The notes under the pieces were generated by a model, which saw only the letters and a program-made list of their open reading frames with translations, did not search any database and was not told the DNA's origin. Shown in pieces: positions 1 through 9,642 of a stretch of 64,000 bases of DNA. How positions within the stretch are numbered: position 1 is the stretch's first letter; each line of letters starts with the position of its first letter. The position numbers and the translations under genes are program-made. The stretch is from an uncultured Gammaproteobacteria bacterium. Its GTDB lineage: Bacteria > Patescibacteriota > Microgenomatia > UBA10105 > UBA927. The stretch is taken from NCBI GenBank assembly GCA_964621305.1, contig CAZUOM010000002.1, positions 73,733-137,732 on the forward strand, written 5' to 3'.

Positions 1-997
1 CCTTCTGAATTTTTATGCCCGTATCCGGGAACAGAATAAGAGTTTTGAGACTTTTTCGTTTGGCAAGAAACCTTCCGAGACCGCTGTAGTCCAGCCTCCT
101 GTCAAATCCGCCGGCGATGAGCGTAGCGACGTCATCACCCAGCGCCTCAAGAGCATAGATGGTTGCCTCCGGGATAGTAGCAAGCGAGTCATTGTAAAAC
201 TTAATTCCCTTAAATTCTCCCACAAACTCCAGCCGGTGCGGGAGCGGTTTAAATTGTCCGATCGCCTGTTCTGTTAGTTTGCGACTCACTCCAAAAAATT
301 GGCCAACAGCAGTTGCGGCCGCAATGTTTTTATTGTCGCCATAAAATGCAACCTTGTTTCCCTTGCTGCTATTGGCAATTTTTGCTGACAGTTTGTTTGT
401 GCGGTCGTAAACAACAACGTCTTTTACCGTTTGGAATTTGACGATATTAGCTTTAGCAGCAACATACTGGTCAAAAGAAGAGTAATAATCCAGGTGTTCA
501 GGAAAAACATTGAGGACAACGGCAACATGGGGACTAAACTTAATATCGGCGAGTTGATGGCTAGATAGTTCTATGACGAATACCGTTTTTTGGGTCGCGG
601 CGCCTAGGTGGTCAAGCGCCGGGTTGCCGATGTTGCCGACGAGCCGCACATCGGCAAATTTCTGCTTGAGGATATCGGCAATAAGAGCTGATGTTGTACT
701 TTTTCCCTTGGTGCCAGTGACGCCGACGGTGACTCCCCGACACAGAGAAAAAAAGATGTTTACTGCTGTGGTGACAAATGGAGCGCGAACTTTTTCAGGT
801 GGAATTCCGGGGGTGCGCACGACGGTGTCATACAGCTGGAGATTATCTAAATAATTATCGCCGTCTTTTTTATCAGCGATACTTATAGACAGACTTGAAT
901 AGTTCTTGCGCAAAAACCGTTCCACGCTTTGGTTTTCTCGTCCGTAGCCAAGGAGAATTATTTTGTCCCCCCTAATTTCACTTGAGTAGTTTTTCAT
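1..997 (-). CDS. murD: UDP-N-acetylmuramoylalanine--D-glutamate ligase MurD (C-terminus runs off left window edge)
   Basis: Manual minus-strand translation from ATG (rc of cat 995-997): [25 protein letters not shown]...GVTGTKGKST (Mur-ligase P-loop)...PHRLEFV... Absent from the ORF track because the ORF runs past position 1. Start overlaps the stop of the upstream gene by about 20 nt. Confidence 0.8.
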   Translation of the reverse strand, partial: MKNYSSEIRGDKIILLGYGRENQSVERFLRKNYSSLSISIADKKDGDNYLDNLQLYDTVVRTPGIPPEKVRAPFVTTAVNIFFSLCRGVTVGVTGTKGKSTTSALIADILKQKFADVRLVGNIGNPALDHLGAATQKTVFVIELSSHQLADIKFSPHVAVVLNVFPEHLDYYSSFDQYVAAKANIVKFQTVKDVVVYDRTNKLSAKIANSSKGNKVAFYGDNKNIAAATAVGQFFGVSRKLTEQAIGQFKPLPHRLEFVGEFKGIKFYNDSLATIPEATIYALEALGDDVATLIAGGFDRRLDYSGLGRFLAKRKSLKTLILFPDTGIKIQK

Positions 998-2336
998 ATT
1001 CAGGCGGCAGAAAGTGATTTGTGTTCCAACCAGAAAGGGAATAATTTTCGCCGGCCAACATGGCGACTGCCGCTTGTGCCTCTTCCGGCGCCCCCACGCA
1101 TTCAAATGGCTTCTTGTCCCCTGCTCCGGCCAAATCTAAAAAATGTTGTTGTAGCTCTTTTTTTTCCAAAAAATTGCTGCCGAAAACCGATTTCATTTGA
1201 TAGTTCGAAAGAAATGGGGATAAAATGAGATACACAAAGGCGCACTTGGCGCAGGCTCCGCACCAGTCGCGGCCGCGGAGCTTGTTGCAACTTGCAAAAA
1301 CCGGGTGATATTTTGGCATTTTTGCAAAAATAGAGGCGACTTGGATCTCGGAAAGCGGACGAAGAAAACTGAAGTACTCGGGTTTTCTTAAGGTCTCCCC
1401 CTGCCATGCAGGGAGAGACCTTGTAAAATATTCCCTGAATTTTTTCTCAAACTCATAACTTTTGGAGTACTGGTGGTTGATGATTTTGCCCAGATATTCT
1501 ATGTTTCCCTCTGAAGCACTTGATTCATTTGAGGCAATGACATGTTGAAAACTGTGGAGCTTAGCAACCATTGAGCCGAGGAATGCAAGGTAGGCAGAAA
1601 ACGGCGTATGTCCGTTGAGATATCCTTGATGGTTAAGTTCAAGCAAAGCAGCATCAATTGTTCGCTTAACAATTATCGGATTTTCGTATCCTGCGACCTC
1701 GACAACCCTTATGGCAGCGGGAGTTGGGTTGAGAAGAAGAACGTTTTTTCGAGTCGGCATTTTTTTGAGAAGCTCAATGGTTACCACCGAGTCTTTGCCG
1801 CCACTGGCGAGGATGAGATCACCACGAGAAGCAGGGCTAGTAACACGAGCAGGGCTAGTAACACGAGAAACGCTGGAAATAGTAAGAAAGCCAGAACCGG
1901 TAAAGTCGATCGCGTTTTTGTAGAAAAATTCACCGAGGCCGTTTATGAATAAATCGTGCCACCAATCAATTTGTTCAGGGGTCAAACTCCCCGCTTTGAC
2001 AATCAACTCCGGCGGGCAGGCGGCTTTCCAGTAGCTGATTGCCTCTACCATGCCGAGGTTGAAAACCAACGGGTCGATAAGTGATCGATTGATTTCTCCC
2101 CTAACCGGAATTGTTATTTCCGGAGAAAATCGAATATCTGGTTCGAGAAGAAAATAGAATCGGACAACTAGTTTCTCGTTGGCTTCAGAAATCTCGTAGG
2201 ATTGGTAGACCAACCGAGGATGTTTAGCGCGCAATTTTTCGACATTCATCTTGCGTATTATACCATCGACCTCTATAATAGACGCATGCCGAAGCGAATA
2301 TATCAACCCAAAAAGAAAAAGCGAGCGCAAAAGCAC
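978..2336 (-). CDS. PP-loop (SGGKDS) ATP-pyrophosphatase family protein with C-terminal CxxC; candidate MurL-like UDP-MurNAc-L-Ala-L-Glu epimerase
   Basis: 452-aa [13 protein letters not shown]-loop motif and C-terminal CGACAKC. Lies immediately upstream of murD, is co-oriented with it and overlaps it. Contains an in-frame 18-bp tandem duplication ([13 protein letters not shown]) and a diverged palindromic insertion at 1389-1423. The functional assignment is inference. Confidence 0.55.
1389..1423. repeat. diverged copy of the in-frame palindromic element (AAGGTCTCCCCCTGC catg GCAGGGAGAGACCTT)
   Basis: 15-bp inverted repeat with 1 mismatch and a 4-nt loop, located inside the coding sequence. 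Encodes [11 protein letters not shown] on the minus strand, similar to the peptides encoded by the copies at 14415 and 60308. Confidence 0.6.
1831..1866. repeat. perfect 18-bp tandem duplication (GCAGGGCTAGTAACACGA x2) inside the PP-loop gene
   Basis: Read directly in the sequence. It is in frame and duplicates the hexapeptide (SRVTSP)ARVTSP just upstream of the SGGKDS motif. Confidence 0.9.
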
Positions 2337-2423
2337 GGGTTCCGGCAGCGGATGGCATCCCGAGGAGGCCGAAAAGTGCTGGCGCGCCGCCGCCTCGCGG
2401 GCCGAAGAAGGTTAACTGTATGA
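2286..2423 (+). CDS. rpmH: 50S ribosomal protein L34
   Basis: [45 protein letters not shown], the typical L34 sequence. The stop overlaps the hicB start (ATGA). Confidence 0.9.
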
Positions 2424-2662
2424 AAATTCACCACTATACCGCAGTTTTTCAAAAAGAACCGACCGGAGGATATACTGTCATTGTCCCTTCGCTGCCGGGA
2501 TGTGTGACGTGGGGGAAAACCACGGAAGATGCTATTGCTGCAGGAAAAGAAGCAATCGAATCATATCTGGGGAGCTTGGCAAAAGATAAACAAAATCCTC
2601 CGCCGGACATCAGTTTTGTTTCGACCATTGATGTTCCCCCGTCTGCAGCGGCATATGCCTAA
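2420..2662 (+). CDS. hicB: HicB-family antitoxin (UPF0150)
   Basis: 80 aa, [39 protein letters not shown]..., the HicB/UPF0150 fold signature. Confidence 0.75.
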
Positions 2663-2879
2663 ATTGCCATCGTATAAACCCCGCGACGTAGTAAAGAAGC
2701 TAGAAAAATTAGGATTTATCAAGCATCACCAAGTTGGCAGTCACCTGACCATGCGTCACCCTACAACTTATCAACGAGCAGTTATACCGCTTCACTTGAA
2801 AGATATAGCAAAGGGCACGCTTCTTTCTTTGCTTCGGGAAGCAGGTATTGACCGAGATACCTTTATTGCAACTAAGTAA
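2655..2879 (+). CDS. hicA: HicA-family mRNA interferase toxin
   Basis: Internal ATG at 2655 gives [36 protein letters not shown]..., which resembles HicA/YcfA. Overlaps the hicB stop (ATGCCTAA). Confidence 0.75.
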   Translation: MPKLPSYKPRDVVKKLEKLGFIKHHQVGSHLTMRHPTTYQRAVIPLHLKDIAKGTLLSLLREAGIDRDTFIATK

Positions 2880-2881
2880 TT

Positions 2882-3232
2882 ATGTTATCGCGGCCACATC
2901 GTCTTCCCGCTTCTGAGATAAAGAATATTCTTCGGAGTAAAGAAAGATTCTCCAGCAGAGAGTTCCATATTGTGTTTGCCAAAAACAATCTGACTGTTTC
3001 CCGTTTCGCCGTAGTTGTTTCAAACAAAATTGATAAGCGCGCAACCGTACGAAATCGCACCAAGCGCCTCATCCGTGAGTCGGCGCGGCATCTGCTTCCG
3101 CGTCTCGTAAGAGGCCGGGATGTCGTGATCATTGCAAAAAAAGCGCTTGGGGAGATTGGTCAGTCGCAGGCGCAAAAAATTGTCCAAGAAGCCTTTTCCC
3201 GTGGCAGTCTTTTCAACAATGCAACAATGTAA
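2882..3232 (+). CDS. rnpA: ribonuclease P protein component
   Basis: 116 aa, basic, RHRL...[25 protein letters not shown]. Sits in the conserved rpmH-rnpA-yidD-yidC-jag context. Confidence 0.85.
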
Positions 3233-3234
3233 CA

Positions 3235-3477
3235 ATGAAACAATTTGTTCTTTCATCGATCCGCTTCTACCAGCGCTACCTATCTTTTGATACGGGACTG
3301 CTTAAGTTTTTGTTTCTGACCGATAAAGCCTGCAGGTTTACACCCAGATGCAGTCAGTACACACATGAAGCAATCAGCCGCTATGGTATAATCATGGGAT
3401 TGACCTTGGGAGTGAGACGTATTCTTCGTTGTCATCCCTGGAATAAAGGCGGATACGATCCCGTGCCAAAAGTATGA
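3235..3477 (+). CDS. yidD: membrane protein insertion efficiency factor YidD
   Basis: 80 aa. YQRYLS...[19 protein letters not shown]...[17 protein letters not shown] is a classic YidD sequence. Confidence 0.9.
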
Positions 3478-4292
3478 CTGATCCAAACCTCTGGAACCAA
3501 CTGCTTATCTGGCCGATTGTTAATCTGTTGGTGGCCTTTTATAAATTGTTTGAGCTTTTGCACATTCCCGGCCCGTTGGGATGGGCAATCATACTTATGA
3601 CGATTGCCATTCGGCTTCTCCTTTATCCCCTCATGGAAAAGCAGCTTGCTTCAGCCAAAAAGATGGCGTCGCTCAAGCCCCACATGGATGCACTTTCCGC
3701 AAGACACAAAGACGATAAAAAGGCCCTCCAACAAGCACAACTTGCGCTTTATAAAGAGCACGGGGTAAATCCTGCCGCCGGATGTCTCCCTCTCCTGATT
3801 CAAATGCCGGTTTTGATTGCCCTCTACAACGTGTTTTATCAAATATTAAGCAACGGAAATTTGGAAAAAATGGTGGAAACCATCAATCAAGTTGTCTATC
3901 TGCCGCTATTGAAGCTGACGTCGCTTGACCCGACGTTTTTCGGAGTCAATCTCGGCATCAAACCTGAGCAGTGGCAGACACATGGCGTATGGCTTCTTTC
4001 CGTGCCGGTTATAACCGGCGCCCTCCAGTGGTGGCAATCTAAGTTGATGATCCCTCCTTCGTCGGGACAAGTGCCAAGCACTGCGTTAGCCAGCAATAAA
4101 GAAGAAAAGAAGCCGGAAGATACGGCGATGGAGATGCAAAAGCAGATGGCCATAATCATGCCCCTCATGTTTGGCTACTTCTCGCTTCAGTTTCAGTTGG
4201 GCCTGGCGCTTTACTGGAATATGTTTGGAGCGCTTGGTATTATTCAGCAATTGTCTGTGAACAGACAAAACACGGAATATGGAAGCAATTGA
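3474..4292 (+). CDS. yidC: membrane protein insertase YidC (short form)
   Basis: 272 aa, multi-TM, LYPL...QMPVLIALY, located after yidD. Confidence 0.85.
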
Positions 4293-4734
4293 TCAAGTTA
4301 AACAACTGACCGAAGATTTGCTTAAGCGCTTGGGAGTAAGCGGCACGGTTAGTGTGGACACTGACGAGGCCGGAGCCTACCGCGTTCACATTGAGACAGA
4401 AGAGACGGGTCTTCTTATTGGTTTCCACGGCAGAACGCTTGAGAGTTTTCAGATTATTTTAAGCATTCTCGTTTCCAAAAAACTAGACTCTTGGGTTAAA
4501 ACTTACGTTAATGTTGGCGATTATCGCGAGAAGCGCGAAGAAGCGCTCATGATAATGGCCCAGCGGGCCGCCGAGCGCGCGCTCTCCCTCAACCGTCCGG
4601 TGGAGCTTTCCCGTCTCTCCCCTTCCGAGCGGCGCGTCATTCACCTGACACTTTCAGGCGACGAGCGCATTGAGACAGAATCAGTGGGAGAAGGCAACAG
4701 TCGGACGCTTCTCGTCAAGCCGCGAACGCCATGA
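4279..4734 (+). CDS. jag: Jag/KhpB-like RNA-binding protein (KH/R3H)
   Basis: 151 aa. R3H-like C-terminus (RRVIHLTLSGDERIETESVGEG) and synteny after yidC. Confidence 0.8.
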   Translation: MEAIDQVKQLTEDLLKRLGVSGTVSVDTDEAGAYRVHIETEETGLLIGFHGRTLESFQIILSILVSKKLDSWVKTYVNVGDYREKREEALMIMAQRAAERALSLNRPVELSRLSPSERRVIHLTLSGDERIETESVGEGNSRTLLVKPRTP

Positions 4735-5291
4735 AAATAGGTCTCCTCGGCGGCGTTTTTAATCCTCCGCACGTCGGACATCTCATTATCGCCCAGCAGG
4801 TTTTAGATTTTACAGACATTGAAGAGATTTGGTTTGTCCCCAATTACGGCCAGCTTCCCCCCAAGCCCAACATTGCTTCCTCGGTTGATCGGTTGGCTAT
4901 GACGAAATTTTTGGTGTTGCCGAGGACGCGAATTTCGACGCTTGAAATCGACCATAAACTTGACGGTAACACTATTAATCTTCTCCCTTATTTACCCAAA
5001 GAACATTCATATCAATTTATCATGGGCAGCGACTGGTTATCGTATTTTAGGCAGTGGGGTCAATGGGAAGAGCTTATTGAACAATTGCCCTTTCTTGTGT
5101 TTCCCCGTAGCGGCCACCCCATGGAACCGCTGTATAAAAACATGACACCACTCAAACACGAACTGTTAGTCACCACGAACATTTCCGCGACCAAAATCCG
5201 CGAGCGCATAAGACGAGGGTTGCCCATCGACCAGTTGGTGCCGCGGGAGATTGCCGAATATATAAAGAGGCATGGATTATATTTGACTTGA
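4731..5291 (+). CDS. nadD: nicotinate-nucleotide adenylyltransferase
   Basis: GGVFNPPHVGHL (the (H/T)xGH motif) and overall NadD-like sequence. Confidence 0.85.
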   Translation: MKIGLLGGVFNPPHVGHLIIAQQVLDFTDIEEIWFVPNYGQLPPKPNIASSVDRLAMTKFLVLPRTRISTLEIDHKLDGNTINLLPYLPKEHSYQFIMGSDWLSYFRQWGQWEELIEQLPFLVFPRSGHPMEPLYKNMTPLKHELLVTTNISATKIRERIRRGLPIDQLVPREIAEYIKRHGLYLT

Positions 5292-5316
5292 AACGGCAAT
5301 TTGCTACACTGGCATC

Positions 5317-5649
5317 ATGCATTTGCCCGCTTTTCTTCAGCCTTCTCTTTGGAGTTATGATTTATCAACAATAGATCCAGAGAAAAGCGCTCACTTTATT
5401 ATCTCGCAGGTGTTAAATTACGGCGACGAGCGGCAGCTTAAATGGCTCTTTTCCCATTACGGAAAAGACACTGTACAGGAGGTGTTGCTCCATCCGTCGC
5501 GCGGCATTTGGCACCGGGAAAAATTAAGGAAATGGTTGGGAGTTTTTCGTCTGATGATCGACCCCTTAGTGTTTGAATCGGCGATTGTTGACCTCGCGCC
5601 GCGAATCAAACTCCACGAGGCGTTTTTTGAGCGGAAGGAGACTTCTTAA
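5317..5649 (+). CDS. hypothetical protein; putative partner/antitoxin of the downstream AbiEii-like nucleotidyltransferase
   Basis: 110-aa ORF located 7 nt upstream of the AbiEii-family gene. No motif recognised. Confidence 0.4.
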   Translation: MHLPAFLQPSLWSYDLSTIDPEKSAHFIISQVLNYGDERQLKWLFSHYGKDTVQEVLLHPSRGIWHREKLRKWLGVFRLMIDPLVFESAIVDLAPRIKLHEAFFERKETS

Positions 5650-5655
5650 GCAAGA

Positions 5656-6300
5656 ATGACGTTTCATCCAGACATACTGCACCCGAGACAACAACGCGTG
5701 TTGAGGAAACTGGCTGTTTTTCGCACGTTTGGGTATTACCTCGCGGGTGGGACCGCGCTGGCGTTGCAGCTTGGACACAGAACGTCATTGGATTTTGATT
5801 TTTACAGCAAGGAGAAACTTGAGCGTGAAACGTTCGCGGTTGGCCTCAAGCAATCGTTGTCAACGGTAAAAATATTGCGTCAAACCCATGATGCATTTCA
5901 GGCTGTTACCGAGGGCGTTAACGTGTCCGTGTTTTACTATCCGTATCAACTATTGCATGCGTTGGTTGATTTTCCACCCATTCAGCTTGCTAGCCTTGAG
6001 GATATTGCGGCCATGAAAATCGTGGCCCTCGTGCAAAGGGCTAGACAACGGGATTTTTGGGACGTCTATTATTTGGCAGAGCGCTTGGGAATAGCAAACG
6101 TAATAGCGTCTGCCTACAGGAAATACCCGTGGTATGAAGAGAACAACCAGATCATACTGCGCGCGCTCACCTATTTTGATGATGCGGACACCGATGACGA
6201 GGTCGGGAGAATAACAATTGTTGACAGAAATCTTCGATGGAAAGACGTGAAGGAGAAGATACGGCGTGCGGTGGAAGCATACCGTAAGGAGACAGCGTGA
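5656..6300 (+). CDS. nucleotidyltransferase AbiEii/AbiGii toxin family (DUF1814)
   Basis: YYLAGGTALALQLGHRTSLDFDFYS matches the GGTAL...R.S.D.DF signature of AbiEii. Confidence 0.7.
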   Translation: MTFHPDILHPRQQRVLRKLAVFRTFGYYLAGGTALALQLGHRTSLDFDFYSKEKLERETFAVGLKQSLSTVKILRQTHDAFQAVTEGVNVSVFYYPYQLLHALVDFPPIQLASLEDIAAMKIVALVQRARQRDFWDVYYLAERLGIANVIASAYRKYPWYEENNQIILRALTYFDDADTDDEVGRITIVDRNLRWKDVKEKIRRAVEAYRKETA

Positions 6301-6419
6301 CGGCAGACGAAGATATATACTGAAAAAACTCAGGTTTGCAATTCGTTTTTCCAGTATATACCCATCTAATCAGCTTTTTCGCCCTAACCGGCTGCAAACC
6401 TGAGTAAGATGGGTATAGC

Positions 6420-7184
6420 ATGATGAGCATAAAGCAAACAGCTGGCCGGCTCGTGGAGTTTTTAAAAGTTTCGTTCCAAGACTCTGGATTTACTCGGGCG
6501 GTCATCGCCCTCTCCGGCGGGGTGGACTCAAGTACTAGCTGCGCGCTGACTGCCCAAACAATCGGAAAAGAAAACGTCTATCCCCTTCTTCTTCCCTACG
6601 GGAACCTCAATAAAAAGAGTATGACCGACGCGTGGTTAGTGACAAAAGTCGTCGGAATTCCGAAAAAAAATGTTACAGAAAAAAATATTGCCCCATTGGT
6701 TGACCCGGTTCTTGCAACAGATCCGACGATGGATAACGTTCGTCGCGGCAACATCATGGCCCGCGTGCGGATGATACTCCTTTATGACTGGGCCAAAAAA
6801 CACAATGCGCTCGTAGTTGGGACGGAAAACAAAACCGAGCATCTCTTGGGATACTTTACTCGCTTCGGTGATGAGGCAAGCGACATTGAGCCGCTGCGGA
6901 GCCTTTACAAAACAGAGGTTTATGAACTTGCAAAATTACTGAAACTGCCGAAAGCAATCTTAACCAAGGCGCCAACCGCTGGTTTATGGGAAGGCCAAAC
7001 AGATGAAGGAGAGTTTGGTTTTACTTACAAAGAAGCGGATGAGATTTTGACCCTGTTGGTTGATAAGGGCCTCGCCATTGCCGATGTCATTCTAAAAGGA
7101 TATGATCGAACCACCGTTGAGAAGGTGGCGACCCGCATGAAAGCTAACAACTTTAAGCACAATCTTCCCCTCGTTCCCCTATGA
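6420..7184 (+). CDS. nadE: NH3-dependent NAD+ synthetase
   Basis: ALSGGVDSS PP-loop motif, 254 aa, NadE-like throughout. Confidence 0.85.
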   Translation: MMSIKQTAGRLVEFLKVSFQDSGFTRAVIALSGGVDSSTSCALTAQTIGKENVYPLLLPYGNLNKKSMTDAWLVTKVVGIPKKNVTEKNIAPLVDPVLATDPTMDNVRRGNIMARVRMILLYDWAKKHNALVVGTENKTEHLLGYFTRFGDEASDIEPLRSLYKTEVYELAKLLKLPKAILTKAPTAGLWEGQTDEGEFGFTYKEADEILTLLVDKGLAIADVILKGYDRTTVEKVATRMKANNFKHNLPLVPL

Positions 7185-8431
7185 GGTGGCACCAAATATT
7201 TTTTTTCCTCCTTCTTGTTTTTTTACCTACGCAATTGGGTTACCACTTTTGGCCTGACTGGGCGATGGTGTTGGGAAGGAGAGTCGACTACTTATCTCCT
7301 ACCGTTTTCTTGACGGACCTTCTCATTTTGTTAACAGTTGGCAGCTGGTTTTTTACAGAAATATCAAATATCAAAAATCAAAAATCAAAAATACAAATTA
7401 AAAATCAAAAACTTAAGTTACTTTTCTTAGCTGTTGTGTTTGTATTAATCAATATTTTTGTTTCTGAAGAGAGACCGGTTGCTATTTATAAATGGTTGAA
7501 GGTTGCGGAATTTGTTGCGCTGGGATGGTATGTAGTAAAAACAAAGCCACCTTTATCGTTTATCGCTTATCCCATGTCGCTTGGCCTTTTGTATTCATCT
7601 GTTCTGGCCATTGCACAATTTTTGCTCCAGCATTCTATCGGCGGCCCACTGTGGTGGCTTGGCGAAAGAATCTTCAATCTCGATACACCGGGTATTGCAC
7701 GTTTTGGCTGGTTTGGTCGGGAAATTCTCAGACCCTACGCAATGTTTCCACACCCGAACGTATTGGGAGGCTACCTCGCGGCAATTCTGCCGCTCATAAT
7801 TATCCAATTAACCAATAATCCAATTCTCAAATTATCCAATATAAAAAAGACGTTTTACCTTACAACTTTGGCGTTGGGGATGGTTGCGCTTGGGTTGACG
7901 TTTAGCAGGAGCGCAATTACTGTCGGAATATTTGCCATTGGACTAACGCTGTGGCAAACATTCAGAAAAAAAAGATATTTGGTTTTGTTTTTTGCCTTTG
8001 TATTGCTTATTGCTTATTGCTTATTGATTATTGCTCCCAATGGCGAGTCGTTTGTCGTTCGGCAGCAGCTTAACGATGCGGCGATAAAAATTTGGCAGCA
8101 ATCCCCCATTATTGGTGTTGGACTTGGAAACTTTCTTGTTGAGTTGCCAAAAGCACTAACCTCCCGATCCGTGTATTTTTTGCAGCCGGCGCACAACATT
8201 TACATTTTGGTTTTAGCAGAAACAGGTGTCGTTGGATTAATATTGCTTCTTTATTTACTTTGGAGAGTCTTTCGAAAAAGACCATTTGGCATTTATCATT
8301 TGTCATTTGGCATTTTGTTAATTCTGGGTCTCGTCGACCACTATCTCCTCACACTCCAACAAGGGCAATTACTGTTGACGCTTTTTGTTTCTTTGAATCT
8401 CTTCGGCTCACACAATACAATACGCTCATGA
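7181..8431 (+). CDS. O-antigen ligase-like (Wzy_C/WaaL family) polytopic membrane protein
   Basis: 416 aa, about 10 TM segments, large loop ...GLGNFLVELPKAL...PAHNIYILVLAETG typical of O-antigen ligase. Contains three to four short tandem-repeat tracts. Confidence 0.65.
   Translation: MRWHQIFFFLLLVFLPTQLGYHFWPDWAMVLGRRVDYLSPTVFLTDLLILLTVGSWFFTEISNIKNQKSKIQIKNQKLKLLFLAVVFVLINIFVSEERPVAIYKWLKVAEFVALGWYVVKTKPPLSFIAYPMSLGLLYSSVLAIAQFLLQHSIGGPLWWLGERIFNLDTPGIARFGWFGREILRPYAMFPHPNVLGGYLAAILPLIIIQLTNNPILKLSNIKKTFYLTTLALGMVALGLTFSRSAITVGIFAIGLTLWQTFRKKRYLVLFFAFVLLIAYCLLIIAPNGESFVVRQQLNDAAIKIWQQSPIIGVGLGNFLVELPKALTSRSVYFLQPAHNIYILVLAETGVVGLILLLYLLWRVFRKRPFGIYHLSFGILLILGLVDHYLLTLQQGQLLLTLFVSLNLFGSHNTIRS
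7360..7408. repeat. heptanucleotide tandem repeat tract (AATATCA x2, AAAATCA x2-3, degenerate units) inside the ligase gene
   Basis: Read directly. Encodes SNIKNQKSKIQIKNQK. Confidence 0.85.
7802..7841. repeat. five imperfect octamer units (ATCCAATT/AACCAATA/ATCCAATT/CTCAAATT/ATCCAATA)
   Basis: Read directly. Encodes IQLTNNPILKLSNI. Confidence 0.75.
8001..8035. repeat. five tandem heptamers TATTG(C/A)T
   Basis: Read directly: tattgct tattgct tattgct tattgat tattgct. Encodes LLIAYCLLIIA. Confidence 0.9.
8284..8318. repeat. five tandem heptamers CATTTNN
   Basis: Read directly: catttgg catttat catttgt catttgg cattttg. The tract straddles the 3' part of the ligase gene. Confidence 0.85.
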
Positions 8432-9642
8432 TTTCCGTATTCACAAACACCGCTTGGCAGGTGTTGGGAAAAGCAGCAACCGCAGGAACTACCTTTCTTT
8501 TGACCATCCTTATTGCCAGCGCATTTGGCGTGGAGGGCTACGGAGACTTTACCAAAATTACCACCTACGTTGCGCTCTTTTTTCTGCTCGCTGATTTTGG
8601 CCTCAATGCTGTTTATCTGCAGAAATCGACGGACTGGAGAGCCCTGTTGGGATTGCGGATTGTGGCAAGCACACTCCTCACATTTTTTGCAATCGCAACG
8701 CTTTCGTTTTTGCCGCAAGGCACGATCAACGGCTTCACGGGTCTTGTGCGCCTGGGCATTGTCCTCTACTCCCCCGCCATCATCTTTCAGGCGCTCCTTA
8801 TGACAGCCAACGCATATTTTCAAAAAAATTTACGCTACCGGTTTTCAACCGTTGCTGTAGCTAGTGGATCGATTGTTTCGCTTGTCCTCATTTGGATTGC
8901 CTCCGGTATGTTTACACCTGCAGCCGGAACGCTTGCCAGCGTTGTTGCATTGCTCGTTGGGTCGGTCGTGACTGCGGTGATTGCCCTTGCTTTCATTCAA
9001 CGACTCAAACAAAACACCTCTCCCTTGTTCAGTCGTTTTATGGCGCGTGAACTTCTGGTCGGCGCACTTCCCCTTGGGGCAACATTGATTTTTAACGTCG
9101 TGTATTTTCGGATCGACAGCCTGATTATGACCGTATCCAGAACAACTGCGGAAGTTGGCATTTACGGACTTGCATACAAATTTTTTGAACTGCCTGTTGT
9201 TTTGCCCACATTTTTTATGAACACCGTCTATCCGTTGATGCTGACAAGTCAAAAATTAATTTCCGTGGTGAAGCGGTCAGCAGTTGTCTTGCTTATTGCT
9301 TCTCTTTTATCGCTTGTCACACTCTGGCTGGCTGCCCCCCTCCTTTCTCTTATCAAATCCGATTTTGGGGCAAGCGTGCCGGCGCTTCGCGTGCTTTCGC
9401 TGGGGCTGCCTTTTTTCTTTCTTACAAGCCTTACGATGTGGACGATAATTGCACTAAAAAAACAAACAGCACTGGTTTTTATTTACGGGGTGTCGATGAT
9501 CGGCACGATTCTTGCTGACCTTCTGTTTATCCCCACGTTGGGGATGATCGCGGCGGCGTGGATTACGGTTATTTCAGAGGCGGCAGTTTTGTTAATGTCT
9601 GGATTTTTTCTTGTTCGATATTTAAAAAAAATCCAAATATGA
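8428..9642 (+). CDS. Wzx-like polysaccharide flippase (MOP superfamily)
   Basis: Start at ATG 8428 (ATGA overlap with the ligase stop). 12-TM protein, MISVFTNTAWQVLGKAATAGTTFLLTILIASAFGVEGYGDF, typical Wzx N-terminus. Confidence 0.7.
   Translation: MISVFTNTAWQVLGKAATAGTTFLLTILIASAFGVEGYGDFTKITTYVALFFLLADFGLNAVYLQKSTDWRALLGLRIVASTLLTFFAIATLSFLPQGTINGFTGLVRLGIVLYSPAIIFQALLMTANAYFQKNLRYRFSTVAVASGSIVSLVLIWIASGMFTPAAGTLASVVALLVGSVVTAVIALAFIQRLKQNTSPLFSRFMARELLVGALPLGATLIFNVVYFRIDSLIMTVSRTTAEVGIYGLAYKFFELPVVLPTFFMNTVYPLMLTSQKLISVVKRSAVVLLIASLLSLVTLWLAAPLLSLIKSDFGASVPALRVLSLGLPFFFLTSLTMWTIIALKKQTALVFIYGVSMIGTILADLLFIPTLGMIAAAWITVISEAAVLLMSGFFLVRYLKKIQI

Follow-up and report, generated by a model that had tools for sequence, protein, structure and literature searches.

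Gene content and organisation of the locus

The window, i.e. the whole 64-kb stretch of DNA that was analysed, belongs to an uncultured groundwater bacterium of the Gottesmanbacteria (Patescibacteria). It carries rpmH and rnpA of the rpmH-rnpA operon on the same strand and close to dnaA-dnaN (which lie about 2.5-5.2 kb upstream on the source contig), but the adjacency of rpmH and rnpA is broken by a hicB-hicA (hicBA) pair (Table 1). These four genes are packed without space for a promoter or a terminator between them, and the rest of the operon, yidD-yidC-jag-nadD (3235..5291, + strand), follows rnpA in an equally tight packing. The same DNA is found in the NCBI assembly GCA_005239695.1 and in an independent Logan contig, and the gene order rpmH-hicB-hicA-rnpA recurs in relatives from unrelated samples; the arrangement is therefore not an assembly artefact.

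Table 1. Features of the rpmH-hicB-hicA-rnpA locus (positions in the window)
Feature	Position	Strand	Evidence or description
Putative operon promoter	2252..2279	+	TTGCGT (2252-2257), 16-nt spacer, TATAAT (2274-2279)
rpmH, ribosomal protein L34 (45 aa)	2286..2423	+	PF00468, 64.4 bits (cut-off 25); TIGR01030, 58.4 bits
rpmH/hicB overlap, ATGA, 4 nt	2420..2423	+	Sequence; rpmH stop TGA and hicB start ATG
hicB, small antitoxin (80 aa)	2420..2662	+	PF15919 (HicB_lk_antitox), 41.0 bits (cut-off 27)
hicB/hicA overlap, 8 nt, non-ATGA	2655..2662	+	Sequence; ATGCCTAA
hicA, toxin (74 aa), predicted mRNA interferase	2655..2879	+	PF07927 (HicA_toxin), 61.8 bits (cut-off 27)
hicA/rnpA spacer, 2 nt, no overlap	2880..2881	+	Sequence; TAA-tt-ATG
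rnpA, RNase P protein component (116 aa)	2882..3232	+	PF00825, 72.7 bits; TIGR00188, 67 bits
yidD	3235..3477	+	ORF coordinates; Pfam YidD; +2 nt from rnpA
yidC	3474..4292	+	ORF coordinates; Pfam 60KD_IMP; -4 nt junction with yidD
jag/khpB	4279..4734	+	ORF coordinates; Pfam KH_KhpA-B+R3H; -14 nt junction with yidC
nadD	4731..5291	+	ORF coordinates; product CTP_transf_like; -4 nt junction with jag/khpB

The original prediction described a "triple ATGA" coupling, which has to be corrected: only the rpmH/hicB junction is an ATGA, hicB and hicA being joined by the 8-nt overlap ATGCCTAA and hicA and rnpA being separated by the 2-nt spacer. All three junctions are tight, even though a single one is of the ATGA type. 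The rpmH/hicB ATGA is also present in the related loci L004, L060, L144 and L145, while L061 and L063 have a 5-nt spacer instead. The 8-nt hicB/hicA overlap is kept in all rpmH-embedded relatives, and many other loci of the subfamily show an overlap of the same kind (5-8 nt), the family consensus ends at this overlap being -YA* and MPK-. Between hicA and rnpA, L004, L144 and L145 have a 1-nt spacer, and L060, L061 and L063 one of 6-8 nt.

Identity of the inserted genes

All four genes (rpmH, hicB, hicA and rnpA) pass the curated Pfam cut-offs, and rpmH and rnpA in addition pass their equivalog models (TIGR01030 and TIGR00188). The HMM search, on which the identification of the two inserted ORFs as HicB and HicA had been made to depend, thus matched both above cut-off, and this identification is borne out by sequence matches to PDB entries and, for HicB, by fold comparison. 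The PF15919 match covers HicB residues 6-62 and profile positions 1-57 of 123 (N-terminal domain only), and the PF07927 match covers HicA residues 10-65 and profile positions 2-58 of 58. NCBIfam and PADLOC searches gave no match for either ORF, blanks that are uninformative either way because the Pfam matches are clear. Hundreds of the homologues are annotated as HicA or HicB by their sources, and no second copy of hicA or hicB was found elsewhere in the 64-kb window.

The HicB sequence matches the solved HicB structures 6g1c, 6g1n, 6u0i and 6hpb. Its AlphaFold model, of moderate confidence (mean pLDDT 61), has strands at residues 9-12, 18-21 and 29-32 and a helix at 35-55, and residues 62-80, after the helix, are predicted to be disordered. 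When this model was compared with the PDB using Foldseek, the 17 top matches were all HicB proteins or TTHA0281 (best E-value 3.3e-4, TMq about 0.55-0.68). HicB is thus predicted to adopt a partial RNase H fold of the N-terminal HicB type. No DNA-binding Pfam domain was found in this 80-aa protein, and nearly all of its 758 homologues are 75-103 aa long.

For HicA, the nearest solved structure by sequence is 1WHZ (E 5.5e-9), followed by HicA3 4P78 (E 0.022). The protein keeps the 17 positions that are invariant in its subfamily (alignment of 27 members with the window protein), including G28-S29-H30. The histidine of this G-S-H motif has a catalytic role in classical HicA.

Classification of the pair

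In the classification of Gerdes (2024; mBio 15:e03293-23, PMC10865869), as given in the part of the article drawn on here, Class 2 comprises hicBA modules with a small HicB devoid of a DNA-binding domain (HicB of 63-103 codons, HicA of 60-85 codons, genes closely linked or overlapping). It is described there as the most common bicistronic arrangement, and how it is regulated without a DNA-binding domain is posed as an open question. By these definitions the window pair belongs to Class 2, with hicB preceding hicA, a HicB of 80 codons and an 8-nt overlap. It is not a Class 3/4 HicB, because it ends at residue 80 with a disordered tail, lacks a DNA-binding domain and has homologues of 75-103 aa. 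The antitoxin-first order had been presented as the reverse of the common one; this view is not supported, since PMC10865869 describes hicBA as the most common bicistronic order and since hicB lies directly upstream of hicA in nearly all of the 80 metagenomic loci with HicA relatives.

Transcription and translation signals

Promoter and ribosome-binding signals were searched for, as the original prediction had recommended, and yielded a candidate promoter before rpmH only and no Shine-Dalgarno enrichment. The perfect -10 box of this putative promoter ends 6 nt before the rpmH ATG, and in about 20 loci of Gottesmanbacteria and Levybacteria the rpmH ATG is preceded by a TATACT/TATAAT box at a distance of 6-9 nt (mostly 6-7). 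The consensus scanner missed it because the -35 box fits at only 3 of 6 positions. Such a position of the -10 box implies that the rpmH mRNA is, apparently, leaderless or near-leaderless.

Within the hicBA module, neither the promoter scan nor the comparison with L004 and L144 revealed a conserved promoter. The sole promoter-like match there is TATACT at 2471-2476; as part of a candidate hicB promoter (TTCAAA-17-TATACT, 2448-2476) it was rejected, since it lies within the codons for the conserved GGYTV and its box is TATACC in L004 and L144. At the sequence level the pair also fails as an autonomous operon with its own promoter or operator upstream of hicB: there is no intergenic DNA at this place, because the hicB ATG overlaps the rpmH stop codon. 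No terminator-like site was detected in 1900-5400 (4.2 expected), the Rfam search of 1-9000 gave no match at E up to 0.1, and RNA folding of 2286-2900 (z-score -0.39) indicated no attenuator or structured element. The composition profile shows no GC or skew anomaly of the insert, which consequently bears no sign of recent foreign origin.

Shine-Dalgarno-like 4-mers precede 8 of the 57 starts in the window, against a background of 17%, i.e. without enrichment. The missing Shine-Dalgarno sequence before hicA and rnpA is therefore not in itself evidence of coupling. Given the absence of terminator-like sites in 1900-5400, the absence of a conserved internal promoter and the tight junctions, the co-expression of hicBA with L34 and RnpA that had been suggested is the most plausible reading.

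Distribution among relatives

The distance from the rpmH stop to the rnpA start is 458 nt in the window. Among 45 Patescibacteria species representatives its median is about 8 nt and 43 of the 45 values do not exceed 115 nt, so that the insertion is more than a chance variation; this synteny comparison confirms that hicBA interrupts an otherwise strongly conserved adjacency. Relatives without the insert have a gap of 1-18 nt, and the juxtaposition of rpmH and rnpA, hence their coupling, would be ancestral. The search for related loci included an RnpA-based scan with an alignment of the 6 closer sequences. The insertion is confined to one Gottesmanbacteria lineage, where it is intact in the window, L145, L060, L061 and L063 and decayed in L004 and L144.

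Only 1 nt separates the gene of P0015, the closest HicA homologue (85% identity), from a downstream gene of at least 96 aa, a layout compatible with the same arrangement. Close relatives of the window hicBA occur mostly elsewhere, in toxin-antitoxin (TA) and defence clusters next to AbiEii, HEPN/MNT, PIN and DUF433/DUF5615 genes. Viral contigs contain only distant HicA relatives (at most 45% identity), and there is consequently no evidence that the module was delivered by a phage.

Decay and loss of the module

In L004, hicA has undergone an in-frame 30-codon deletion that removes G-S-H, and hicB has a 1-nt frameshift (a base lost beside an A run) that could be an assembly error. In L144, an in-frame deletion of about 60 codons has reduced hicA to a 14-codon remnant, an ORF that still begins within the overlap with hicB and ends 1 nt short of rnpA, next to an intact hicB (90% identity). 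Finally, hicBA is missing between rpmH and rnpA in L005, where a single nucleotide separates the rpmH stop from the rnpA ATG. Since L144 and L145, which are more distant than L005 in both L34 and RnpA, carry the insert, a loss in L005 is likelier than a later gain, and the absence is probably a clean deletion.

A stop-start relay to rnpA remains in all three cases of loss (L004, L144 and L005). Only two in-frame hicA deletions were seen, both of them in frame by chance in about 1 case in 9, and as a sign of a coupling constraint they are suggestive only. Intact hicA beside a destroyed hicB was found in no locus examined. Loss of the toxin with retention of the antitoxin is what would be expected of a functional toxic pair, and the pattern points indirectly to such a function.

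Selection on hicBA

Synonymous divergence is saturated (pS 0.64-0.97), whereas pN is 0.07-0.09 for hicB and 0.11 for hicA, against 0.17-0.20 for rpmH and about 0.32 for rnpA. Identity is 89-90% for HicB and 86% for HicA where L34 reaches only 67-71%. Between the window and L004, hicB has a dN/dS of about 0-0.11 and what is left of hicA one of 0.05, and HicB identity is 94% (73/78 residues; hand count on frame-corrected alignments). In this lineage hicBA is under purifying selection stronger than that on L34 or RnpA, and the pair has been inherited between rpmH and rnpA for a long time. HicB identity to the window is about 90% for L144/L145 and about 70% for L060/L061, and RnpA identities rank the relatives in this way too. 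A recent horizontal acquisition of hicB was considered because its window-L004 dS (0.7) is lower than that of the flanks, and was discarded because pS against L144/L145 is 0.72-0.73, saturated like the flanks.

Proposed mechanism

Given what the two proteins are, how the junctions are built, the restriction to one lineage, the long purifying selection and the decay pattern in relatives, we regard as probable that hicBA is a Class 2 TA passenger without a promoter of its own, transcribed from the rpmH promoter, translated by coupling and forming a link in the relay to rnpA. Briefly, the pair would have been captured between rpmH and rnpA, close to dnaA-dnaN, in the ancestor of one Gottesmanbacteria lineage. 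It would since have been transcribed as a passenger of the rpmH-rnpA-yidD-yidC-jag-nadD operon from the putative promoter just before rpmH, a co-transcription that we infer from the gene layout.

Because Shine-Dalgarno sequences are not enriched in the genome, the internal cistrons most likely depend on termination-reinitiation for their translation. After finishing rpmH, ribosomes would begin hicB at the ATGA; from the end of hicB they would pass to hicA at the 8-nt overlap, presumably with lower efficiency, so that antitoxin would exceed toxin; and after hicA they would resume at the rnpA start 2 nt further on. Such a coupling across rpmH-hicB-hicA-rnpA is favoured by the decayed copies, in which the stop-start relay persists. 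HicB would neutralise HicA by direct binding, whereas free HicA would cleave mRNA and arrest growth. This toxicity and its neutralisation are proposed by homology to the Class 3/4 systems, since no Class 2 member has been tested experimentally according to the cited part of Gerdes 2024 (PMC10865869). The module would in this way have turned into a link of a translational relay feeding the essential rnpA, and for this reason could be lost only by deletions that restore a stop-start juxtaposition.

A stronger version of this mechanism makes the module an obligatory reinitiation link that holds rnpA translation "hostage" and is thereby shielded from ordinary deletion and from nonsense or frameshift decay; we put it forward tentatively and consider it rather unlikely. 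If it were true, only in-frame or perfectly clean deletions would survive, and genomic addiction would operate at a second level that does not depend on toxin activity. For the window case, this version would also explain how a Class 2 hicBA without a DNA-binding domain is expressed.

Alternative histories and roles

The alternative that survives best, possible although we doubt it, is that the rpmH neighbourhood is an insertion hotspot which hicBA entered repeatedly, rather than once with subsequent vertical descent. At least three other events have indeed taken place at or beside the operon: L005 has a different hicBA between rnpA and yidD (HicA only 39% identical), L059 has two tandem hicBA pairs about 90-1200 nt upstream of rpmH, and the distant L120 has one pair about 670 nt upstream of rpmH. 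In L046, moreover, a GGDEF gene lies between rpmH and rnpA. A neighbour-joining tree of HicB plus HicA leaves the embedded copies non-monophyletic, but it is built on about 150 residues, is star-like and has essentially no resolution. Several copies in other contexts are 71-76% identical to the window pair, as close as those of L060/L061 (68%), so that the module may have entered repeatedly or have been exchanged between lineages. Against repeated entry, HicB and HicA identities track those of the housekeeping proteins and the rpmH/hicB junction sequences look homologous between lineages. A hotspot concerns the history of the locus and not its mechanism, and can hold together with the main explanation.

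It is unlikely that the pair is a purely selfish or neutral passenger which landed by chance and is kept by addiction only, with no benefit to the host and no role for rnpA. Such a passenger would fit with the prevalence of its close relatives in TA and defence clusters elsewhere, with the loss of the toxin at least two times and of the whole pair once in one small clade, and with the 45 other species that lack the module. However, with synonymous divergence at saturation, HicB and HicA have changed less than L34 and RnpA, which indicates strong and long-lasting selection on them, and a coupling constraint explains better than chance why each of the three losses keeps the stop-start relay. Even by itself, addiction keeps the antitoxin and the HicB-HicA interface under selection.

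Far less credible is a domestication of the pair for RNA metabolism, as a partner of RNase P or ribosome biogenesis or for tuning the operon, its TA role being gone. This idea takes the HicA fold as RNA-binding (dsRBD-like). The direct contact of hic genes with rnpA in several lineages, the very high conservation of HicB and HicA relative to L34 and the intact orphan hicB left in L144 after hicA loss would agree with it, but HicA keeps the catalytic G-S-H typical of active toxins and hicA is dispensable (deleted in L004 and L144, the pair being absent from L005 and from 45 other species). Near-identical modules also occur in unrelated contexts, and no feature sets the embedded copies apart from the free ones.

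Lastly, that the ORFs are other than HicB and HicA, to which only the NCBIfam and PADLOC blanks could be related, or that the arrangement is an assembly chimera, is already refuted by Pfam scores well over the gathering thresholds, agreeing PDB sequence and fold matches, hundreds of homologues labelled HicA or HicB at source and the repetition of the arrangement in independent assemblies and samples.

Returning to the passenger transcribed and translated with rpmH, the locus would be a natural Class 2 case that lacks its own regulatory DNA and depends on a core operon linked to growth, and this dependence would tie the supply of antitoxin to the expression of a ribosomal-protein operon. The relatives range from intact copies, through a toxin gene shortened in frame and another cut down to a 14-codon ORF, to a clean loss. 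For translational coupling in a bacterium that does without Shine-Dalgarno sequences, they amount to a natural experiment on a small scale. The case suggests that a selfish element inserted into an essential operon can become structurally entrenched there.

Comparison with known systems

The nearest known systems are the Class 2 modules (PMC10865869, from the part drawn on here), which the window pair resembles by its upstream hicB, its 80-aa HicB without a DNA-binding domain, its 74-aa HicA and an overlap suggesting translational coupling, and from which it differs by the absence of an upstream intergenic region and by its position inside a core housekeeping operon. A context like rpmH-rnpA is not mentioned for Class 2 in the sections of Gerdes 2024 (PMC10865869) used for this comparison, and our literature search found no paper tying hicAB to rpmH or rnpA.

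The classical hicAB systems of E. coli K-12, Burkholderia pseudomallei and Yersinia pestis (Classes 3/4; 6HPB, 6G26, 4P78) have a toxin of the same HicA family. In the accounts considered here, their toxin gene comes first and the C-terminal HTH or RHH domain of HicB autorepresses its own promoter, whereas the window pair has the reversed order, no DNA-binding domain and no detectable promoter of its own. In Thermus thermophilus, TTHA0281 and TTHA1013 (UPF0150; 2DSY, 1WV8) are stand-alone short HicB-like proteins of a size similar to the window HicB, and TTHA1913 (1WHZ) is a HicA-like protein, also of similar size, that gives the best solved sequence match for the window HicA. These three are structural-genomics proteins without functional data, encoded outside the rpmH-rnpA operon.

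A type II pair also shares a transcript with host genes in relA-mazEF of E. coli and in mazEF upstream of the sigB operon of Staphylococcus aureus. Those modules lie at one edge of the adjacent unit, either its end or its start, and have kept their own autoregulated promoter, unlike the window pair, which is wedged between two translationally juxtaposed essential genes, seemingly without regulation of its own. Finally, the canonical bacterial rpmH-rnpA(-yidD-yidC-jag) operon has the same genes, in the same order and at the same position near dnaA-dnaN, but in the window rpmH and rnpA are split by 458 nt with two foreign genes. The protein pair thus belongs to an already described and very common class, and it is its genomic context that is new.

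Organisation of the hicBA-containing operon

A hicB-hicA toxin-antitoxin pair lies between rpmH (L34) and rnpA (RNase P protein), in an operon of eight plus-strand genes delineated by reading positions 1900-3900 together with the ORF list. All neighbouring genes of this operon are separated by -14 to +2 nt, and tight junctions are no peculiarity of the hic genes. The original prediction had described triple ATGA coupling: the module is indeed present and tightly wedged between its neighbours, with ATGA found at the rpmH/hicB junction only.

Features of the hicBA locus and its surroundings in the window
Feature	Position or extent	Strand	Basis
423-aa protein gene	981-2249	-	
TATAAT (-10 box)	2274-2279		
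rpmH (L34)	2286-2423	+	ORF list; Pfam and NCBIfam
rpmH/hicB junction	4-nt overlap, ATGA		read in sequence
hicB, 80 aa	2420-2662	+	PF15919 HicB_lk_antitox, 41.0 bits (cut-off 27)
hicB/hicA junction	8-nt overlap, ATGCCTAA		read in sequence
hicA, 74 aa	2655-2879	+	PF07927 HicA_toxin, 61.8 bits (cut-off 27)
hicA/rnpA junction	2-nt spacer, TAA-tt-ATG		read in sequence
rnpA (RnpA)	2882-3232	+	ORF list; Pfam and NCBIfam
yidD	3235-3477	+	ORF list; YidD by Pfam/NCBIfam
yidC	3474-4292	+	ORF list; YidC by Pfam/NCBIfam
jag/khpB	4279-4734	+	ORF list; Jag by Pfam/NCBIfam
nadD	4731-5291	+	ORF list
DUF6922 gene	5317-5649		
AbiEii nucleotidyltransferase toxin gene	5656-6300		
Wzy_C-family membrane protein gene	7181-8431		

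RnpA homologues assign the organism to Candidatus Gottesmanbacteria (Patescibacteria/CPR). Identical DNA was recovered from assembly GCA_005239695.1 and, independently, from a Logan contig. On this source contig the opposite strand carries dnaN and dnaA a few kb upstream, and the locus is therefore the dnaA-dnaN/rpmH neighbourhood, which adjoins the replication origin in many bacteria and is recognised here from the genes alone. The insert does not differ from its flanks in composition, and the hicBA region gave no Rfam match and no unusual RNA fold.

The 423-aa protein gene, divergent from rpmH, encodes an SGGKDS (PP-loop-like) motif with a weak DUF6395 match and is followed on the source contig by a Mur-ligase-family gene, then dnaA-dnaN; the same pair of genes is called at the related locus L004, and L005 and L008 encode homologues of the 423-aa protein. 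Directly past nadD, the DUF6922 and AbiEii genes (5317-6300) look like a second toxin-antitoxin module; at two other loci (L053, L054) a small ORF and an AbiEii-like ORF, judged from size, position and first residues, stand beside hicBA relatives. Within the Wzy_C-family gene, GC content falls to 0.28 at 7300-7500, where a Lys/Asn/Gln-rich repeat (…KNQKSKIQIKNQKLK…) is encoded.

Features of HicB and HicA

The PF15919 match of HicB covers profile positions 1-57 of 123, and nearly all of its 758 homologues are 75-103 aa long. Its AlphaFold model (mean pLDDT 61) consists of strand-strand-strand-helix and a disordered tail, and the best PDB fold matches are exclusively HicB N-terminal domains or TTHA0281. 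HMM matches, model and homologue lengths gave no sign of, and leave no room for, a DNA-binding domain in the 80-aa protein. For HicA, 168 homologues were found at E<1e-5, with 70-85% identity in many cases, and the 17 invariant positions of the subfamily alignment, including G28-S29-H30, are all present in the window protein. The solved structures closest in sequence to the antitoxin are those of HicB from B. pseudomallei and E. coli; for the toxin they are HicA-like 1WHZ and HicA3.

Distribution and history of the insertion

Of 47 Patescibacteria species representatives retrieved via RnpA alignment, 45 carry both rpmH and rnpA. Between the rpmH stop and the rnpA start the median distance is about 8 nt, with 43 of these 45 species at 115 nt or less. 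An exception besides the window is the Patescibacteria genome L046 (846-3878), where the gene between the two encodes 854 aa with a pair of GGDEF domains and has its stop codon 2 nt ahead of the rnpA ATG; adjacency is thus strongly, not absolutely, conserved. The gap in the window is 458 nt, and none of the 45 representatives has hic genes within 4 kb.

Intact rpmH-hicB-hicA-rnpA order was found at the relatives' loci L145, L060, L061 and L063 (respectively 89, 72, 70 and 68% identity to the window for HicB, and 86, 66, 64 and 62% for HicA), and the same order with a decayed module at L004 (RnpA 61%) and L144 (HicB 90%). Other close relatives of the module mostly lie elsewhere, in toxin-antitoxin/defence clusters or inside other operons, and viral contigs hold distant relatives only. 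At L005, where rpmH adjoins rnpA, a distinct hicB (99-101 aa) and hicA (73 aa; HicA 39% identical to that of the window) lie between rnpA and yidD (840-1344), a second invasion of this operon at a different junction. Two tandem hicBA pairs immediately precede rpmH at L059 (275-2472), and one hic pair lies upstream of rpmH at the distant L120.

A gene for a PF05635 (23S rRNA intervening-sequence) protein was seen between rnpA and yidD at L059 and near the operon at L004; upstream of rpmH at L063, an ORF (73-483) looks similar by eye. A HicA relative of 80% identity (P0016; L135-L137, 3757-4865) sits in a same-strand gene string, 27 nt behind a 542-aa gene and overlapping the next, 216-aa gene by 8 nt, and therefore operon embedding of this HicA subfamily may not be unique to rpmH-rnpA.

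In pooled housekeeping identity (YidC, Jag, YidD, L34), the window, L004 and L005 form an equidistant trio at 85%, L061 reaches 74-75% and the insert-free L006 73-75%. L004 and L005 are closer to the window in L34 (82-84%) than L144 and L145 (L34 67-71%, RnpA 50-54%), whose HicB is nonetheless about 90% identical. This, together with a ranking of relatives by HicB/HicA identity that equals their ranking by RnpA identity, fits a single old insertion that would have been inherited vertically and later cleanly lost in L005. A neighbour-joining tree of HicB+HicA lacked resolution and did not group the copies embedded between rpmH and rnpA, and the module may therefore have been inserted more than once or exchanged.

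Constraint and decay of the module

Synonymous sites are saturated in all comparisons (pS 0.64-0.97), and the embedded module has been kept over this divergence. hicB and hicA are the slowest-evolving genes of the segment: against L144/L145, pN is 0.07-0.09 for hicB, 0.11 for hicA, 0.17-0.20 for rpmH and about 0.32 for rnpA. The comparison of the window with L004 gives a dN/dS of 0-0.11 in hicB and 0.05 in what is left of hicA. Both genes coded for functional proteins over a long period. Separately, RnpA evolves far faster than its operon neighbours (40-62% identity between the window and Gottesmanbacteria L004-L010, L012 and L014, against 74-91% for Jag and 64-87% for YidC).

The locus has met three outcomes in relatives. 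At L004, a 30-codon in-frame deletion removes G-S-H from hicA, which also carries a P2L change, and hicB has lost 1 nt beside an A run, its shifted ORF still stopping 6 nt ahead of the start of hicA'. At L144, hicB is intact and an in-frame deletion has cut hicA to a 14-residue remnant, which starts in the 8-nt hicB overlap and stops 1 nt ahead of the rnpA ATG. At L005, no hicBA lies between rpmH and rnpA, and 1 nt separates the rpmH stop from the rnpA ATG. A relay of stop-start contacts to rnpA is retained in all three. The toxin goes first and the antitoxin stays, as would be predicted for a truly toxic pair.

Expression and interpretation

The perfect TATAAT of the window ends 6 nt ahead of the rpmH ATG, and TATACT or TATAAT recurs 6-9 nt (mostly 6-7) ahead of this ATG at many Gottesmanbacteria and Levybacteria loci (window 2252-2288, L004-L014, L021, L022, L027, L040, L045, L047, L059-L063 and L144), which argues for a leaderless rpmH mRNA and suggests that this holds across the group. 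SD-like motifs are not enriched ahead of starts in the 64-kb window (8 of 57, background 17%, a strong 5-mer in 1 only; ORFs of at least 120 aa, crude calls at the first ATG of each), and this organism seems to initiate translation independently of SD sequences. No terminator-like site was found in 1900-5400.

The best-supported reading is that a Class 2 HicBA was captured inside the rpmH-rnpA operon, where the rpmH promoter would drive its transcription and its translation would run through a termination-reinitiation chain that would also feed the essential rnpA. The data establish what the proteins are, how the genes are arranged and distributed, how far the proteins are constrained and how the module decays; co-transcription, the leaderless start, coupling and toxicity are inferred. 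Repeated insertion at a hotspot, a purely selfish passenger and domestication for RNA metabolism are rival accounts; all are compatible with the architecture and differ over host benefit and history.

Relation to known HicBA systems

Both the family and the class of this toxin-antitoxin pair are known. Gerdes 2024 (PMC10865869) defines Class 2 as hicBA with a small HicB devoid of a DNA-binding domain, presents it as the commonest bicistronic arrangement, and calls its regulation unexplained and the class experimentally unstudied. The window pair fits this definition exactly, with hicB first and a small HicB that has no such domain. As Class 2 is the commonest arrangement, and as almost all of 80 metagenomic loci that carry relatives of the window HicA have hicB immediately ahead of hicA, the earlier view of the antitoxin-first order as unusual fails. 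The literature searched contains no report of this context, in which a module sits between two essential genes that otherwise abut, is kept over saturated synonymous divergence and leaves relay-preserving remnants. The locus bears on the expression of HicBA modules that have no DNA-binding domain.
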